A stretch of 64,000 nt of DNA, taken from assembly GCA_964016885.1 (NCBI GenBank), contig OZ024742.1, forward strand, positions 212,102,001-212,166,000, read 5' to 3'. A program made the translations under genes and the position numbers. How positions within the stretch are numbered: the stretch's first letter is position 1; each line of letters begins with the position of its first letter. This stretch comes from Eledone cirrhosa (lineage: Eukaryota). The notes below the pieces were generated by a model. The model saw nothing but the letters and a program-made list of their open reading frames with translations, made no database searches and was not told the origin of the DNA. Positions 457 to 22,610 of this stretch are shown here, in pieces.

Positions 457-3282
457 AGTGGGGTTGCTCTGTATATCCGTGAAGATGTCACACCAATTGT
501 ACTGTTGACACATTCAAACTCAGTCTGTGACACACTGATAATACATATGAAGCAACTACAGACAGTAATATGTGTCACATATCGGCCGCCCGATGCCCCC
601 AGTCATGAGGGTAAATTTGAGGATAGCCTAAGTAGGATAGAATAGGTCCTTGACAAACTGGACCAGAGTCTCAACATTCTACTGCTGGGAGACTTCAACC
701 TACCAAAGGTCAAATGGCCTGAGGGCTACCTCCTCCCTGGAATGACGTCAATAGAACAGAGACAGACGGAATCCCTGCTGGCCCTCATACACAGGCTGTT
801 CATGGAGCAAGCAATACTCCTTCCAACAAGAGGCGAAAATGTCCTGGACCTCTGTTTTACAAACAACGAAGTGCTCATCCACAATGTAAAGGTGACACCA
901 ACAATTCTCTCGGATCATAACTTAGTAGAGCTAATGATATGTGGTCCAAGAGAACCAACAGAGACAAAACCACCAAGAAGCTCCGGGACGCTATCCAGCC
1001 TTAACTTCTACAAGGCTAACTGGAAAAAGATTAAGAGTGAAATCCGGAAGCAAACATGGAGTGAAAACACTGCCACACAAGACACTAACACACAATTTCA
1101 ACACTTCATGACAACGATACACACTATATGCAAAAAGTTTGTCCCGGAGAAAGAGGCAAACAGACACAAAAATCTTATTCCCAGAGATAGGAAAATCCTT
1201 ATGAGACGTAGAACTAAACTCTCAAACCAGTTGAATAGTCAACTAAACAAAAAGAAGGAATCCTATTTGAAACATGCACTACTTGACACCGAAATTGCAC
1301 TCAAACTTTCCCATGAGAATGAGAGGGCAAAGAAAGAGAACAGGGCCATAGAAAACATTAAAACAAACCCCAAGGCCTTCTTTAAATTTGCAAAAGAAAC
1401 TGCCTCAGTACACTGCAAGATTGGGCCACTCTTCCACACGGACAGTTCATTAACCGAAAACCCCCAAGAGATATGTGAAATACTGAACGAACAGTACAAA
1501 AGTGTGTTCACATGTCCACTGAGGCACATGCAAATAACGAAGCCAGAGGAGTTCTTTGATGCCACAACACTACATGAAGAAATGGCAACCATCAACCACA
1601 AACACATAACGGAGGAGGATGTGGTGTACGCCATTGATGAAATTAGAACAGACTCGGCTGCTGGACCTGATGGATTCCCAGAAGTTCTCTTAAAAATATG
1701 TAAGCGGGCCTTAGCAACTCCACTGAAGATGCTCTTCAGAAGCTTCTTGGCTAGCGGTGTACTACCCAGGGAGTTGAAAGAAGGCACAATATGCCCTATC
1801 CATAAAGGAGGTAGTAGAGCGGAGGCCAAGAACTATGGGCCAGTCTCCTTGACGTCGCATATCAGTAAGGTCATGGAGCGAGTCGTCAGAAAGAAACTAA
1901 TTACTTTCCTCGAGGAAAATGACCGCCTGATTAGCACGCAACATGGCTTCCGCCCAGGAAGAAGCTGCCTTACACAGCTGCTACATCACTACGACTGGGT
2001 ACTGAGACAACTACTAGACAGCTCACATGTGGACGTGATATATCTTGACTTTGCGAAGGCCTTTGACAAGGTTGACCACGGAATGATATTTGACAAGGTC
2101 GACCACGGAATGATATGTCACAAACTACACAGACTCGGCATAACTGGAAAAGTAGGTGAGTGGCTGCATGGATTCCTAAGGGACAGAAGCCAGGCAGTCG
2201 CAGCAAATGGGGCCCTCTCGAGGGAAACACCGATAACAAGTGGGGTGCCCCAGGGGACAGTCCTGGGACCACTACTGTTTTTGGTGGCTCTCTCGGACAT
2301 GCCCTCTGTGGTGCATGCAACAACATACCTCACTAGCTATGCTGATGACACTAAGGTAGCACAGGCAATCAAAAACCCGGCTGACGCTGCCCTCTTACAG
2401 CAGGATCTGGATGCCATATACAAATGGGCGGAAGAAAACAACATGCAGTTTAATGCTGGCAAATTCCAAGCCCTACAATACAAACCTACAAACACAAATA
2501 TAGTGGAACACAGCTACACAGGACCAGGAGGGACCGATATCCCCGTGTCAAAATCGATACGAGACCTGGGCATAGACATGAGCAATGATGCATCTTTTTC
2601 TTCACACATCATGAAAGTGGCGACAATGTGCAGTCAACTTGCTGGCTGGATCTTGAGGACTTTCCGGACAAGAGATCGAGACACCATGTTGACACTGTGG
2701 AGGACTTTTGTCCTAAGCCGCCTGGACTACTACTCCCAGTTGTGGTCACCCCATAGTGTCAAACTAACCACGGCGCTTGAGGCAACCCAGCGAAGCTACA
2801 CCAAGAGGATTGCCAAGAGGAGGGAGACAAGCTACTGGGAGAGGCTAAAGGAACTGAACCTCTACTCTTTGGAGCGAAGACGGGAGAGATACGCAGTGAT
2901 CTACATGTGGAAAATCCTGGAGGGACTAGCACCAAACTTTGGCATTGGGAGCTGGACCAACCGTCGAACAGGACGTCACTGTGTGGTGCCAAAGGTCCCG
3001 TCTTCCACATCTAGAATAAGGAGCAGGTATTGCAATAGCCTGGGATTCAAAGGCCCTCAACTCTTCAACAGGCTGCCGAGGGATCTGAGAGACTTGCATG
3101 ACGTGGAGGTGGATGTCTTTAAGAAACATCTCGACACCTTGTTATCCAGGATCCCGGATGAGCCCACAGAAAGACACGAGGGAAACCAAAGGGCAGCAGC
3201 ATCAAACTCCTTCTTACACCAGGGCCAACCTATACAGGCTGGAGATAAAATGTGTAGCCACAAGGGCGATGCCCCAGCATAG
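457..3282 (+). pseudogene. LINE ORF2 (APE endonuclease + reverse transcriptase), disabled
   Basis: The frame of the 742-3282 ORF continues upstream to 457 (SGVALYIREDV...YRPP...GDFN) but has a TAG at 643-645. The endonuclease N-terminus is missing and there is a 27-nt in-frame duplication in the RT. Confidence 0.88.
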
Positions 3283-3315
3283 CCTCAGCCGGATGGCTGA
3301 AACAGGTAAAAGAGA
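457..3315 (+). mobile_element. 5'-truncated CR1-clade non-LTR retrotransposon (LINE) inserted in an (AT/AC)n tract
   Basis: APE endonuclease motifs (GVALYI, YRPP, GDFN, LDL, SDH), RT motifs (YLDFAKAFD, GVPQGTVLGP, YADD), a CR1-like C-terminus (LYSLERRR) and a 3' stem-loop tcagcc-ggat-ggctga. Microsatellite lies on both sides. Confidence 0.92.
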
Positions 3316-3322
3316 ATATATA

Positions 3323-3382
<60 letters not shown>

Positions 3383-3725
3383 CATACATATATATACGTA
3401 CATATATATATACATACATATATATACGTACATATATATACGTACATATATATATACATATATATATACATACATACATACATATATACATACATATATA
3501 CATACATATATATATACGTACATATATATATATACATACATATATATACGTACATATATATACGTACATATATATACATAATATATATACATACATATAT
3601 ATATATACATATATATACGTACATATATATACATACATATATATATACATACATATATATATACATACATATATATATATACATACATATATAATATTAT
3701 ACATATATAATATATTATATACATA

Positions 3726-3774
<49 letters not shown>

Positions 3775-3835
3775 ATATATATATATTATATATATATATA
3801 TACTATACATATATATAATATATATATATATAGTA
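3316..3835. repeat. (AT)n/(ATAC)n microsatellite
   Basis: Direct reading of the sequence. Confidence 0.98.
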
Positions 3836-4035
3836 NNNNNNNNNNNNNNNNNNNNNNNNNNNNNNNNNNNNNNNNNNNNNNNNNNNNNNNNNNNNNNNNN
3901 NNNNNNNNNNNNNNNNNNNNNNNNNNNNNNNNNNNNNNNNNNNNNNNNNNNNNNNNNNNNNNNNNNNNNNNNNNNNNNNNNNNNNNNNNNNNNNNNNNNN
4001 NNNNNNNNNNNNNNNNNNNNNNNNNNNNNNNNNNN
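3836..4035. other. Assembly gap (200 N)
   Basis: A run of exactly 200 N, the look of a fixed-size scaffolding gap. Confidence 0.99.
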
Positions 4036-5940
4036 CACTGCAAGATTGGGCCACTCTTCCACACGGACAGTTCATTAACCGAAAACCCCCAAGAGATATG
4101 TGAAATACTGAACGAACAGTACAAAAGTGTGTTCACATGTCCACTGAGGCACATGCAAATAACGAAGCCAGAGGAGTTCTTTGATGCCACAACACTACAT
4201 GAAGAAATGGCAACCATCAACCACAAACACATAACGGAGGAGGATGTGGTGTACGCCATTGATGAAATTAGAACAGACTCGGCTGCTGGACCTGATGGAT
4301 TCCCAGAAGTTCTCTTAAAAATATGTAAGCGGGCCTTAGCAACTCCACTGAAGATGCTCTTCAGAAGCTTCTTGGCTAGCGGTGTACTACCCAGGGAGTT
4401 GAAAGAAGGCACAATATGCCCTATCCATAAAGGAGGTAGTAGAGCGGAGGCCAAGAACTATGGGCCAGTCTCCTTGACGTCGCATATCAGTAAGGTCATG
4501 GAGCGAGTCGTCAGAAAGAAACTAATTACTTTCCTCGAGGAAAATGACCGCCTGATTAGCACGCAACATGGCTTCCGCCCAGGAAGAAGCTGCCTTACAC
4601 AGCTGCTACATCACTACGACTGGGTACTGAGACAACTACTAGACAGCTCACATGTGGACGTGATATATCTTGACTTTGCGAAGGCCTTTGACAAGGTTGA
4701 CCACGGAATGATATTTGACAAGGTCGACCACGGAATGATATGTCACAAACTACACAGACTCGGCATAACTGGAAAAGTAGGTGAGTGGCTGCATGGATTC
4801 CTAAGGGACAGAAGCCAGGCAGTCGCAGCAAATGGGGCCCTCTCGAGGGAAACACCGATAACAAGTGGGGTGCCCCAGGGGACAGTCCTGGGACCACTAC
4901 TGTTTTTGGTGGCTCTCTCGGACATGCCCTCTGTGGTGCATGCAACAACATACCTCACTAGCTATGCTGATGACACTAAGGTAGCACAGGCAATCAAAAA
5001 CCCGGCTGACGCTGCCCTCTTACAGCAGGATCTGGATGCCATATACAAATGGGCGGAAGAAAACAACATGCAGTTTAATGCTGGCAAATTCCAAGCCCTA
5101 CAATACAAACCTACAAACACAAATATAGTGGAACACAGCTACACAGGACCAGGAGGGACCGATATCCCCGTGTCAAAATCGATACGAGACCTGGGCATAG
5201 ACATGAGCAATGATGCATCTTTTTCTTCACACATCATGAAAGTGGCGACAATGTGCAGTCAACTTGCTGGCTGGATCTTGAGGACTTTCCGGACAAGAGA
5301 TCGAGACACCATGTTGACACTGTGGAGGACTTTTGTCCTAAGCCGCCTGGACTACTACTCCCAGTTGTGGTCACCCCATAGTGTCAAACTAACCACGGCG
5401 CTTGAGGCAACCCAGCGAAGCTACACCAAGAGGATTGCCAAGAGGAGGGAGACAAGCTACTGGGAGAGGCTAAAGGAACTGAACCTCTACTCTTTGGAGC
5501 GAAGACGGGAGAGATACGCAGTGATCTACATGTGGAAAATCCTGGAGGGACTAGCACCAAACTTTGGCATTGGGAGCTGGACCAACCGTCGAACAGGACG
5601 TCACTGTGTGGTGCCAAAGGTCCCGTCTTCCACATCTAGAATAAGGAGCAGGTATTGCAATAGCCTGGGATTCAAAGGCCCTCAACTCTTCAACAGGCTG
5701 CCGAGGGATCTGAGAGACTTGCATGACGTGGAGGTGGATGTCTTTAAGAAACATCTCGACACCTTGTTATCCAGGATCCCGGATGAGCCCACAGAAAGAC
5801 ACGAGGGAAACCAAAGGGCAGCAGCATCAAACTCCTTCTTACACCAGGGCCAACCTATACAGGCTGGAGATAAAATGTGTAGCCACAAGGGCGATGCCCC
5901 AGCATAGCCTCAGCCGGATGGCTGAAACAGGTAAAAGAGA
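4036..5940 (+). mobile_element. Second copy of the CR1 LINE 3' part (same as 1411-3315)
   Basis: Offset 2625, with identical translation including the private 27-nt duplication. It starts exactly at the gap edge. Confidence 0.9.
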
Positions 5941-16548
<10,608 letters not shown>

Positions 16549-17762
16549 GGTGGCTGCCAACTCGTTTTCGGGTACGGGCCACTACTTTATATCCATGTAG
16601 GAGAACTCCTACCGATGCGCTGAACGAGTGTGACTTTTTAGTCCAGCCAGCGACTTGAAAACTCTGGTACAAACACTACACCTGTGACAATTATTAACAC
16701 ATAGTTCTGGGTCCTGGGCATCATGTGACGACAAGTGCAGAGAGATCTCCAGATATAATGCAATGCCAGTGCCGTGAAGCTTTTATAGTGAGCAAAGGCA
16801 CTGCACAAAGCCAGTCCCACTCTCTTAACCAAGATGATATTTACCAAAAAGAAGAACAAATCAACATCATTGGATACCATCAGGGTTGCAGGTGTTATAT
16901 CAGAGTTTTCCTTCTCCTAGAATTCTGCCTTGACAAAGGCTAAGGGGTCATCTCTCAATATATACATACATGTACATATACATACATACATACATACATA
17001 TATGCATACACATATGCATACACATATACATACATATATATGTACATACATATATATATACATATATATGTACATACATATATATATACATATATATATA
17101 CATACATATATATATACATACATATATATATATACATACATATATATATACATACATATATACATACATACATATATACATACATACATGGTGGCTGCCA
17201 ACTCGTTTTCGAGTACGGCCACTACTTTATATCCATGTAGGAGAACCCCTACCGATGCGCTGAACGAGTGTGACTTTTTAGTCCAGCCAGCGACTTGAAA
17301 ACTCTGGTACAAACACTACACTTGTGACAATTATTGACACATAGTGCTTTACCCTTGATACCATGTGACGACAAGTGCAGAGAGATCTCCAGATACAAAG
17401 CAATGCCTGTGCCGTGAAGCTTTTATAGTGAGCAAAGGCACTGCACAAAGCCAGTCCCACTCTCTTAACCAAGATGATATTTACCAAAAAGAAGAACAAG
17501 TCAACATCATTGGATACCATCAGGGTTGCAGGTGTTATATCAGAGTTTTCCTTCTCCTAGAATTCTGCCTTGACAAAGGCTAAGGGGTCATCTCTCCCAG
17601 TGATTTTGGATGGCCATTGACTCTTATGAGCTCCTTTGCCCTTTGACAGGTTTTGTTTTTAGTCCTGCAGGATGTCCAAAGTCACCCTCCTCACCAAGAA
17701 ACCTTGGTGGGGTTGCCAGTTTAGTCGCCAACGACCCGACCATGAGACAGGTTGTACTGGGA
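16549..17762. repeat. Tandemly duplicated ~390-bp segment (16549-16937 and 17190-17596, second copy extended to ~17762); right part resembles an RTE-type 5' UTR on the minus strand
   Basis: Two direct copies separated by microsatellite. The minus-strand motif ctaggagaaggaaaactctga is recalled from RTE 5' regions; that family assignment is tentative. Confidence 0.6.
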
Positions 17763-18038
17763 TACATGTATATACACATATATATACATATATATATATA
17801 TATATACATATATATACACATATATACACATATATACATATATATATACATATATACATATATATATATATACATATATATACACATATATATATATATA
17901 CATATATATACATATATATACATATATATATATATATATACATATATATACATATATATATATATATACATATATATACATATATATATATACATATATA
18001 TACATATATATATATACATATATATACATATATATAGC

Positions 18039-18071
<33 letters not shown>

Positions 18072-18180
18072 CATATATATACATATACATATATATATAT
18101 ATATATACATATATATACATATACATATATATACATATATACATATATACATATACATATATATACATATATATATATAC

Positions 18181-18257
<77 letters not shown>

Positions 18258-18493
18258 CATATATACATATATATACATATATATACATATATATGTATAT
18301 ATATATGTTATATATATATGTATATATATATATATGTATATATATATATGTATATATATATACATATATACATATATATACATATATATACATATATATA
18401 TACATATATATATATATATACATATATATACATATATATATACATATATATATACATATATATATACATATATATATATATACATATATATAC

Positions 18494-18542
<49 letters not shown>

Positions 18543-19555
18543 CATATATATATACATATATATATATACATATATATATACATATATATATACATATATA
18601 TATATACATATATATATATATACATATATATATACATATATATATACATATATATATACATACATATATATATATACATACATATATATATACATATATA
18701 TATACATATATATATATATACATATATATATACATATATATATATATACATATATATACATATATATATATATACATATATATACATATATATGTACATA
18801 TATATATATATATACATATATATACATATATATATACATATATATACATATATATACATATATATATACATATATATACATATATATACATATATATATA
18901 CATATATATACATATATATATACATATATATATATACATATATATATACATATATATATACATATATATACATATATATATACATATATACATATATATA
19001 TACATATATATATACATATATATACATATATATACATATATATACATATATATATACATATGTATACATATATATACATATATATACATATATATATACA
19101 TATATATATACATATATATACATATATATACATATATGTACATATATATACATATATATATATACATATATATATATACATATATATACACATATACACA
19201 TATATACATATACATATATATACACATATACACATATATACATATATATATACATATATACATATATATATATACATATATATATACATATATACATATA
19301 TATATATACATATATATATACATATATATACACATATATATATACATATATATACATATATATACATATATATATATATATATACATATATATACATATA
19401 TATATATACATATATATATATATACATATATATATATACATATATATACATATATATATATACATATATATACATACATATATATACATATATATACATA
19501 TATATATATACATATATATACATATATATATACATATATATATATACATATATAC

Positions 19556-19602
<47 letters not shown>

Positions 19603-20606
19603 CATACATACATATATATATACATATATATATATAATATACATATATATATACATACATATATATATATACATATATATATACATATATATATATATAC
19701 ATATATATATATACATATATATACATATATATACATATATATATACATATATATACATATATATATACATATATATACATATATATATACATATATATAC
19801 ATATATATATATACATATATATATACATATATATACATATATATACATATATATATACATATATATATACATATATATACATATATATACATATATATAT
19901 ACATATGTATACATATATATACATATATATACATATATATATACATATATATACATATATGTACATATATATACATATATATACATATATGTACATATAT
20001 ATACATATATATATATACATATATATATATAAATATACATATATATACATATATATACATATATATACACATATATACACATATACATATATATATATAC
20101 ATATATATACACATATATATATACATATATATACATATATATACATATATATATATATACATATATATACATATATATACATATATATATATATACATAT
20201 ATATACATATATATATATATATACATATATATATACATATATATATATATACATATATATACATATATATATATATATACATATATATACATATATATAT
20301 ATATATACATATATATACATATATATATATACATATATACATATATATATATACATATATATATATACATATATACATATATATATATACATATATATAC
20401 ATATATATATATACATATATACATATATATATATACATATATATATATACATATATATATATACATATATACATATATATATATACATATATATATATAC
20501 ATATATACATATATATATATACATATATACATATATATATATACATATATATATATACATATATATATATACATATATATATATACATATATACATATAT
20601 ATATAC

Positions 20607-20637
<31 letters not shown>

Positions 20638-20666
20638 CATATATATATATACATATATATATATAC

Positions 20667-20699
<33 letters not shown>

Positions 20700-20730
20700 C
20701 ATATATATACATATATATACATATATATAC

Positions 20731-20761
<31 letters not shown>

Positions 20762-20880
20762 CATATATATACATATATATACATATATATATATACATAT
20801 ATATACATATATATATATACATATATATATATACATATATATATATACATATATATACATATATATACATATATATATAT
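17763..20880. repeat. (AT)n/(ATAC)n microsatellite
   Basis: Direct reading of the sequence. Confidence 0.98.
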
Positions 20881-21120
20881 ATACATTTAGAAACACACAG
20901 ATACATGCGGACACACACATATATACATGAATGCATCCGCACCCAACTGTGAGTTAAGGGTGCCAACTTCACCGATGTTGCTCAATGAATGACTGGGACA
21001 GACCAATTCAGTTTGAACCAGACTGAACCAGTATCAGAGTTAAAAATACATTATGAAGAGAGAAGAAACATTTAGATATAATTAGTAATAAAATGTATCA
21101 TACCTAAACTGTTCCTAAAT

Positions 21121-21208
21121 TCCTCGACTACGTAGTTTCGTGGCATAAACAAAAACAATATATCAAAGATATAGAGTCCTTGCGAGGTCTGCCGACTTAT
21201 CAAGAGGA
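21121..21208 (-). ncRNA. Type I hammerhead ribozyme, U3:A8 variant (inverted copy)
   Basis: Reverse complement of 21754-21841, lying within repeat B. Confidence 0.8.
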
Positions 21209-21753
21209 TACCTCATTTTACTAGTCTCAAGAACGCGTCCACACGACGTGAGAAAGAATCCCAAAAGGCGGAGGGGGAGATAGTCACGCGATATAACGGT
21301 CGAGAAACAGAACTAAGCCTCTTATAACCACGAAAAAAATACCACGGAGGCGGAGGAAACTGAATTGGTCTGTCCCAGTCATTCATTGAGCAACATCGGT
21401 GAAGTTGGCACCCTTAACTCACAGTTGGGTGCGGATGCATTCATGTATATATGTGTGTGTCCGCATGTATCTGTGTGTTTCTAAATGTATTAATAACTCC
21501 CTCTGGTCGAGCAATCTTTGAAGTGTGGGGACAACTGGAAAGCTTCCATTACTCATACTTCTCGCCTTCTTCACTACCTCTTCTACGGCCTCGATATGAA
21601 TACCCCCTCCGCCTCCGTGGTATTTTTTTCGTGGTTATAAGAGGCTTAGTTCTGTTTCTCGACCGTTATATCGCGTGACTATCTCCCCCTCCGCCTTTTG
21701 GGATTCTTTCTCACGTCGTGTGGACGCGTTCTTGAGACTAGTAAAATGAGGTA

Positions 21754-21841
21754 TCCTCTTGATAAGTCGGCAGACCTCGCAAGGACTCTATATCTTTGAT
21801 ATATTGTTTTTGTTTATGCCACGAAACTACGTAGTCGAGGA
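21754..21841 (+). ncRNA. Type I hammerhead ribozyme, U3:A8 core variant
   Basis: Stem I TCCTC/GAGGA; core TTGATAA (21759-21765); stem II GT(c)GGCA/TGCCAC; GAAA (21823-21826); stem III within the palindrome ACTACGTAGT; GUC cleavage triplet ending at 21836. Confidence 0.8.
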
Positions 21842-21910
21842 ATTTAGGAACAGTTTAGGTATGATACATTTTATTACTAATTATATCTAAATGTTTCTTC
21901 TCTCTTCATA

Positions 21911-21916
<6 letters not shown>

Positions 21917-21957
<41 letters not shown>

Positions 21958-21958
21958 C

Positions 21959-22007
<49 letters not shown>

Positions 22008-22028
22008 CATATATATACATATACATAC

Positions 22029-22059
<31 letters not shown>

Positions 22060-22126
22060 CATATATATATATACATATATATATATATACATATATATAT
22101 ATACATATATATATATATACATATAC

Positions 22127-22166
<40 letters not shown>

Positions 22167-22610
22167 ATACATATATATACACATACATATATATATATAT
22201 ACATATATATACACATACATACATATACATATATATATATATACACATACATACATATATATATATATATACACATACATACATACATATATATACATAT
22301 ATATATACATATATATACACATACATACATATATATATATATATACACATACATACATATATATATATATATACACATACATACATATATATATATATAT
22401 ACACATACATACATATATATATATATATACACATACATACATATATATATATATATACACATACATACATATATATATATATATACACATACATACATAT
22501 ATATATATATATACACATACATACATATATATATATATATACACATACATACATACATATATATATATACCAATATATACATACATATGTATATATACCT
22601 ATATATATAT
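21917..22610. repeat. (AT)n/(ATAC)n microsatellite with a ~26-nt higher-order unit
   Basis: Direct reading; repeated acacatacatacat(at)n units. Confidence 0.95.

Follow-up and report, generated by a model that had tools for sequence, protein, structure and literature searches.

Metazoan non-LTR retrozymes have been described as non-coding tandem repeats with one type I hammerhead per unit and a GC content below 50%, occurring in thousands of copies, with highly self-paired predicted RNA and alongside Penelope-like elements (PLEs) (PMC7229834; 10.64898/2026.07.22.740005; published systems are compared here as they appear in the consulted parts of the cited papers). The 591-nt hammerhead family described here shares these features, and its unit lies within the 51-972 bp range given for retrozymes (10.64898/2026.07.22.740005). 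It differs from the metazoan retrozymes in its U3-A8 core, where theirs have the canonical motif, its very long stem II, its short dispersed arrays, half of them head to head, its two fixed 3′ ends, its (AT)n targeting and its functional splice donor. Retrozyme circles have been demonstrated in coral, mussel and axolotl, whereas the circle of the 591-nt family is a proposed one. That retrozymes and PLEs are one thing has already been argued (10.64898/2026.07.22.740005). Plant LTR retrozymes, which form circles of 600-1000 nt, also carry a hammerhead, predicted to be blocked in the circle as in the present family; their type III hammerheads, true LTRs and mobilisation by Gypsy elements have no counterpart in the 591-nt family.

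The insertion anatomy of PLEs comprises 5′ truncation, partial tandems, an inverted 5′ copy and an optional tail at one end, together with microsatellite targets and an intron near the pLTR (PMC8557442; PMC11167929; for tail and inversion also PMC8969392), and all of these recur in the 591-nt family. For the anole PLE, the tail corresponds to the sequence that separates two internal reverse transcriptase (RT) start sites; cutting and extension take place on both target strands, and a dimeric protein is predicted (PMC11167929). Two internal RT starts, about 80-90 nt past the hammerhead cut, are a further likeness. Compared with PLEs, the 591-nt family has no ORF and a tail of 165 nt instead of 30-40 nt, and the rule that an inversion has one of each end was counted here and was nearly strict. 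The hammerheads of the Schistosoma PLE Cercyon (PMC4209133) resemble the present ones in their U3-A8 swap, palindromic stem III and predicted activity as dimers; they are mostly single minimal motifs in truncated PLEs, whereas in the 591-nt family stem III is full, stem II contains a 47-nt insert and the units are non-coding and arranged in tandem. MRC1 and other Chlamys PLEs (PMC8557442) are likewise non-autonomous with multicopy head-to-tail insertions; they are without canonical hammerheads and match autonomous partners at their 3′ end, whereas no partner was found for the 591-nt family. The origin of tandem and inverted PLE copies and the role of the hammerhead are still open (PMC8557442; PMC11167929; PMC4209133). 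No account of the 591-nt family was found in article texts on octopus Penelope hammerheads or retrozymes; the supplements of PMC7229834 and 10.64898/2026.07.22.740005 could include cephalopod families.

Anatomy of the island and its family

The island lies at 20881-21916 of a 64,000-nt window of Eledone cirrhosa DNA (contig OZ024742.1, positions 212,102,001 to 212,166,000, forward strand). The genome encodes molluscan haemocyanin, each gene having seven functional units, and unit g scored 647-655 bits against the octopus and squid chains 1js8, 4yd9_C and 6r83 but about 500 bits against the abalone chain 3j32; the cephalopod origin suggested by the sequence-only reading is thereby supported, and the host is probably an octopod. 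A search for maximal exact inverted matches recovered the two interleaved pairs that a sequence-only reading had described: pair A (20881-21014 with 21357-21490, 134 nt) and pair B (21046-21356 with 21606-21916, 311 nt), both with 0 mismatches, and spacers X (21015-21045, 31 nt) and Y (21491-21605, 115 nt). The 591-nt unit A'-Y-B'-X' that had been reconstructed from them turned out to be the natural tandem period at other genomic loci (spacing 591). In ribozyme sense it was numbered A' u1-134, Y u135-249, B' u250-560 and X' u561-591. The left arm (20881-21356, minus strand, 476 nt) reads u250-591 and then u1-134, and reaches its 3′ site, S2, at 20881; the right arm (21357-21916, plus strand, 560 nt) reads u1-560 and reaches its 3′ site, S1, at 21916. 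Both sites adjoin (AT)n, and the TA/TACA microsatellite target abuts both outer ends of the island (left flank 17770-20880, right flank 21917-22600). The S1-to-S2 stretch X'+A', or 'tail' (20881-21045, minus strand, 165 nt), was found solely at the left end. As had been claimed, an ORF check of the island found no RT or endonuclease ORF. The island has one hammerhead per strand, and this copy is therefore incapable of releasing a monomer on its own.

Elsewhere in the window, about 16 kb of TA/TACA microsatellite extended over 5900-22600, and further small elements were nested in it at 16548-16955 and 17189-17768. One LINE-type RT ORF was present twice at 646-5907; its two copies are 2,625 nt apart and lie on either side of a 200-N gap (3836-4035), so that an overlap duplicated at this scaffold gap is the likely cause.

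The 23-nt ribozyme motif had 7,458 exact matches genome-wide, and the control had 0. With B as query 1,039 candidates were obtained, the best 40 of which, when scored, were 99-100% identical and many of them 591 apart; among 70 sampled insertions, arrays reached about 5 units per arm. Older subfamilies that are about 77% and 70% identical retained both period and layout (1,851 and 2,361 candidates, overlapping sets), with a tandem period of 590-598 in the older subfamily, and from these sequences the family comprises at least three subfamilies. The motif matches and the head-to-tail units without an ORF bear out the earlier description of a non-autonomous multicopy family, and 'young' fits its newest wave only, as subfamilies with 70-83% identity share the layout.

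The units of the family are head-to-tail tandem repeats, non-coding and without an LTR, each with a type I hammerhead motif of variant form (U3-A8, long stem II), as expected of non-LTR retrozymes. They are also truncated at the 5′ side, stop at fixed 3′ sites with or without a tail, include inverted 5′ copies and target microsatellite or AT-rich DNA, as PLE derivatives do. The island contains no RT plus GIY-YIG ORF of an autonomous PLE, and its type I topology and the absence of an LTR pair set it apart from LTR retrozymes with a type III hammerhead in direct LTRs. On these sequence characters, we class the family as a non-autonomous PLE-type non-LTR retrozyme, retrozyme-like in its working and PLE-like in its insertion.

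Fixed 3′ ends and head-to-head insertions

The ends were surveyed in 70 insertions, a non-random sample that consisted of the best-identity matches and the first motif matches on contig C1, less one duplicate and two very diverged loci. The copies lay in (AT)n, their 5′ ends were ragged, and their 3′ ends fell at S1 (u560) or S2 (u134-136), sites that are 165 nt apart and 80 nt (S1) and 245 nt (S2) beyond the predicted hammerhead cut. The former distance is close to the 85-92 nt between cut and start that was derived from the coordinates of the anole PLE (PMC11167929). Direct insertions (32/70) ended at S1 in 17 cases, at S2 in 14 and elsewhere in 1. Among the inverted insertions (38/70) two had a damaged end, and the 36 with both ends readable, 34 directly and 2 via overlapping loci, all had S1 at one end and S2 at the other, for which the chance under free choice of ends is about 1e-11. 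In the older subfamily the rule was obeyed by 15 of 16 readable inversions, the exception being L183 with S2 at both ends. Two ends with the same S1/S2-type pairing were also present in other hammerhead families of the genome, an ORF-bearing PLE included.

Within insertions the two arms agreed in 631 of 637 comparisons at polymorphic sites (6 differed), while between insertions 77% agreed and 23% differed; minor alleles were shared by the two arms at 86 sites and confined to one arm at 6. Judged by these shared variants, the two arms of an inverted insertion derive from the same template. Since inverted insertions end once at each fixed 3′ site and their arms share variants, the interleaved A/B pattern is read as the ordinary PLE anatomy of an inverted copy plus tail, rather than as terminal repeats. 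The earlier reading had left two templates open. A multimeric or circular one agrees with the 591-nt head-to-tail arrays, whose arms reach about 5 units. The other, a linear element of LTR-type layout with a hammerhead in its terminal repeats, was discarded, as the arrays consist simply of units in head-to-tail order, X' being present at every junction.

Copies were often nested within (AT)n tails that belong to other PLE families (L015, L028, L036, L100 and L111). Another hammerhead family was seen as very short head-to-head insertions joined near the ribozyme, with one arm per end site (L036, L074, L111, L174 and L188). Four S2 arms (L102, L114, L132 and L169) halted at u5-10, about 40 nt short of S1, beside a predicted hairpin, which is a possible stall point.

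Predicted hammerhead and transcription of its strand

A type I hammerhead was predicted on the plus strand at 21754-21841, with stem I, core, long stem II hairpin, GAAA, palindromic stem III and a cut after 21836; the left arm carries an identical second one as an exact inverted copy (21121-21208, minus strand). By hand reading, stem I pairs 21755-21758 with 21837-21840, the core occupies 21759-21765 and stem III lies at 21826-21835. The cut position given by the sequence-only reading fits this structure, with the qualification that the core is UUGAUAA (U3-A8 swap) and not the canonical CUGAUGA. Searches of Rfam gave no hammerhead at gathering or at E up to 10, the returns being chance miRNA-like matches on the microsatellite, and a scan of the window for the canonical CUGAnGA had no match inside the island. 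The core swap has already been described in Schistosoma PLE hammerheads (PMC4209133). The whole hammerhead motif had 6,610 genome matches, and 99 of the 100 among those listed had the UUGAUAA core.

The hammerhead halves were 54/55 identical between the young and the old subfamily, compared with 69-85% elsewhere in the unit, and this conservation is counted for RNA-level selection on the ribozyme. Pair covariation was assessed in 45 diverse copies (51 after de-duplication, minus 6 truncated or gapped). The hammerhead pairs were formed in 93.7% of cells, changes were mostly one-sided with both-side changes at 2 of 34 pairs, and the covariation score was reached by 11 of 500 shuffles; the covariation is therefore weak. 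The 10-nt palindrome of stem III was predicted to form a self-duplex at -14.3 kcal/mol and to fail to fold as a lone hairpin. In the third subfamily stem III is altered at two sites with the palindrome retained, and these sites are pairable only between two ribozymes. Counting against an active ribozyme, the active fold lay 3-8 kcal/mol above the predicted minimum and the local fold had a z of -0.01. A putative 6-bp pseudoknot (21747-21779, plus strand) would join 21747-21752, 5′ of stem I, to 21774-21779 in the internal loop of stem II; its support was weak, with 92% of cells paired and both-side changes confined to single sequences. The ribozyme 3′ arm was further predicted to pair with the sequence ending at S1 in a long hairpin (21828-21915, plus strand), for which single-sequence folds gave z -4.4, -2.2 and -3.8 in three subfamilies; folding of the alignment from stem III to S1 (-0.9 kcal/mol) did not recover it.

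A 5′ splice donor AG/GTATGA is located at 21857-21864 on the plus strand. A contig from run X6, one of a set of sequencing runs of which none is recorded as RNA, exits the unit precisely at this donor in another copy, and its continuation maps once, right after a pyrimidine tract and AG, with the acceptor 3.7 kb downstream of a sense copy on C22 (G000:C22:8275625-8279921). As the contig is a spliced transcript, the ribozyme strand is therefore transcribed, at least at the C22 copy. There the copy lends its splice donor to a cryptic downstream exon, which gives a chimeric transcript. A diverged loose end from the same run had no exact match in genome G000. Run X1 contained the unit as one cyclic 621-nt contig, which a circle or a tandem array fits equally; the four sites at which this contig differs from the window are those at which the family majority does too. 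The unit was also found at depth 2-12, near-identical to the family majority, in runs X1, X10 and X15 under many organism codes. Horizontal transfer was not adopted as an explanation of its presence in runs of other organisms: depth was low, the sequence was near the majority, and carry-over or diet are also possible.

Template, enzyme source and mode of insertion

In our favoured interpretation, which we consider fairly probable, the island is a head-to-head insertion of a non-coding 591-nt hammerhead repeat, placed in (AT)n likely by the RT/endonuclease of an autonomous PLE and probably from a circular monomer RNA. The earlier suggestion of mobilisation in trans is supported by the absence of an RT/endonuclease ORF from the unit and by the PLE-type insertion anatomy. 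A GIY-YIG family search gave 10,596 candidates, so rich is the genome in PLEs. There is at least one open RT/GIY-YIG frame of 938 aa, which belongs to a full-length PLE at L071 (G000:C1:145868000-145877900) whose two terminal repeats carry U3-A8 hammerheads. This element resembles the 591-nt family in its U3-A8 hammerhead, in targeting (AT)n and in the similar distance of its first end, and it is a candidate source of enzyme for in vitro work. An autonomous Penelope sharing the unit sequence, of the kind that the sequence-only reading had suggested looking for, was found neither in the 40 best-scoring GIY-YIG loci nor in the flanks of the sampled copies. C3-variant hammerheads, older subfamilies and sister family flanks led to no homologous ORF-bearing element, and a Poseidon-like protein search for an autonomous parent returned its own family alone. 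A sister hammerhead family (L089:290-680, G000:C2:111529700; 1,676 candidates) combines a U3-A8 core with a long stem II. The palindrome of its stem III measures 12 nt and shows compensatory variants, its tail is repeated in tandem, and a search for an ORF in it found none.

A circular template, proposed earlier for PLE tandems (PMC4209133) and for retrozymes (PMC7229834), is considered likely from three indirect kinds of sequence evidence, namely fixed private variants, strand-specific self-pairing and extra 5′ ends past the cut. In young arrays with at least 3 copies of a site, private variants were in all units in 6 cases, in one unit in 19 and in some units in 1. Private variants fixed across units point to re-expansion after a monomer bottleneck, as expected from a circle, though homogeneous source arrays could cause shared variants and need no circle. 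Folded as a circle, the sense unit had a z of -5.1, the antisense unit -0.8 and old units -5.3 and -7.2 (25 shuffles each). Minus-strand 5′ ends flanked by (AT) numbered 66 in u466-496, compared with 30 in u436-466, 29 in u370-400 and 43 in u499-529, as counted with four anchors of unequal sensitivity. By hand count, 33 of the first 39 distinct 5′ ends listed were at u481-496, 3′ of the cut, and 6 at u467-480. The excess lies directly against the cut, yet as a 16-nt plateau with no sharp peak at u481; it is a hint of cleavage, and RT pausing at structure could also produce it.

The same family and PLE enzyme could instead use an uncleaved linear multimer transcribed from tandem arrays, or jump between templates, with a hammerhead that is weak or used elsewhere and no need of a circle. 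The majority of arms in the 70 insertions read through the predicted cut site, and the predicted minimum is a fold other than the active ribozyme, both as this explanation would have it. The hammerhead was also dispensable for in vitro insertion of the anole PLE, where mutants had no effect and RNA-seq reads did not end at the cut (PMC11167929); 8 of 9 Xenopus retrozyme dimers likewise failed to cleave in vitro (10.64898/2026.07.22.740005). Yet 5′ truncation would shorten linear arrays in every round, whereas arms are found that reach about 5 units and have private variants in each of them, and neither the strong conservation of the ribozyme nor the excess of 5′ ends just beyond the cut is as expected. 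We regard this alternative as rather unlikely. It is improbable that a rare full-length PLE has the unit as its terminal repeat or UTR, with the copies as truncated ends of that element: the pLTR features are there (hammerhead, splice donor, two start sites), and a rare parent may be hidden from a genome search that scores the best candidates, but the unit succeeds itself head to tail with no ORF between, no sampled copy (70 young and 30 and 25 older loci, some overlapping) enters a PLE ORF, and the 40 GIY-YIG loci had no homology to the unit. An inversion created by chimeric reads or assembly would account for arms that are 100% identical and embedded in a huge microsatellite; with more than half of the sampled insertions inverted, the same two outer ends, varied inner junctions and inversions in older, diverged copies as well, it was rejected as extremely improbable.

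Under the favoured interpretation, the hammerhead strand would be transcribed, as was seen at one other copy in the spliced contig, and tandem hammerheads would be cut, probably as dimers via the palindromic stem III, with the monomer ligated into a circle. A GIY-YIG nick in (AT)n would then prime cDNA at internal start S1 or S2; two fixed ends are what was seen, and the enzymology is borrowed from PMC11167929. Both target strands would prime on the same template, one at S1 and one at S2, and the cDNAs would be joined head to head, paired priming being suggested by the observed one-of-each rule. Running around the circle would give arms exceeding one unit. A more specific version, which we put forward tentatively as a possibility, is that a dimeric Penelope RT primes one 591-nt circle at two sites, one per strand, with both rolling round it; the cutting arm of the ribozyme would be held in a hairpin together with start site S1, so that ribozyme activity and reverse transcription would gate each other.

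Standard hammerhead models overlook an abundant animal family. In the 591-nt family, short and nearly identical insertions that stop at two fixed sites number in the thousands. This makes the models of a circular template and of paired priming testable, and the family may be useful mainly as a mechanistic test bed with a simple 591-nt RNA substrate. If true, paired priming of a circle by a dimer would explain PLE tails, inversions and tandem arrays in one step.
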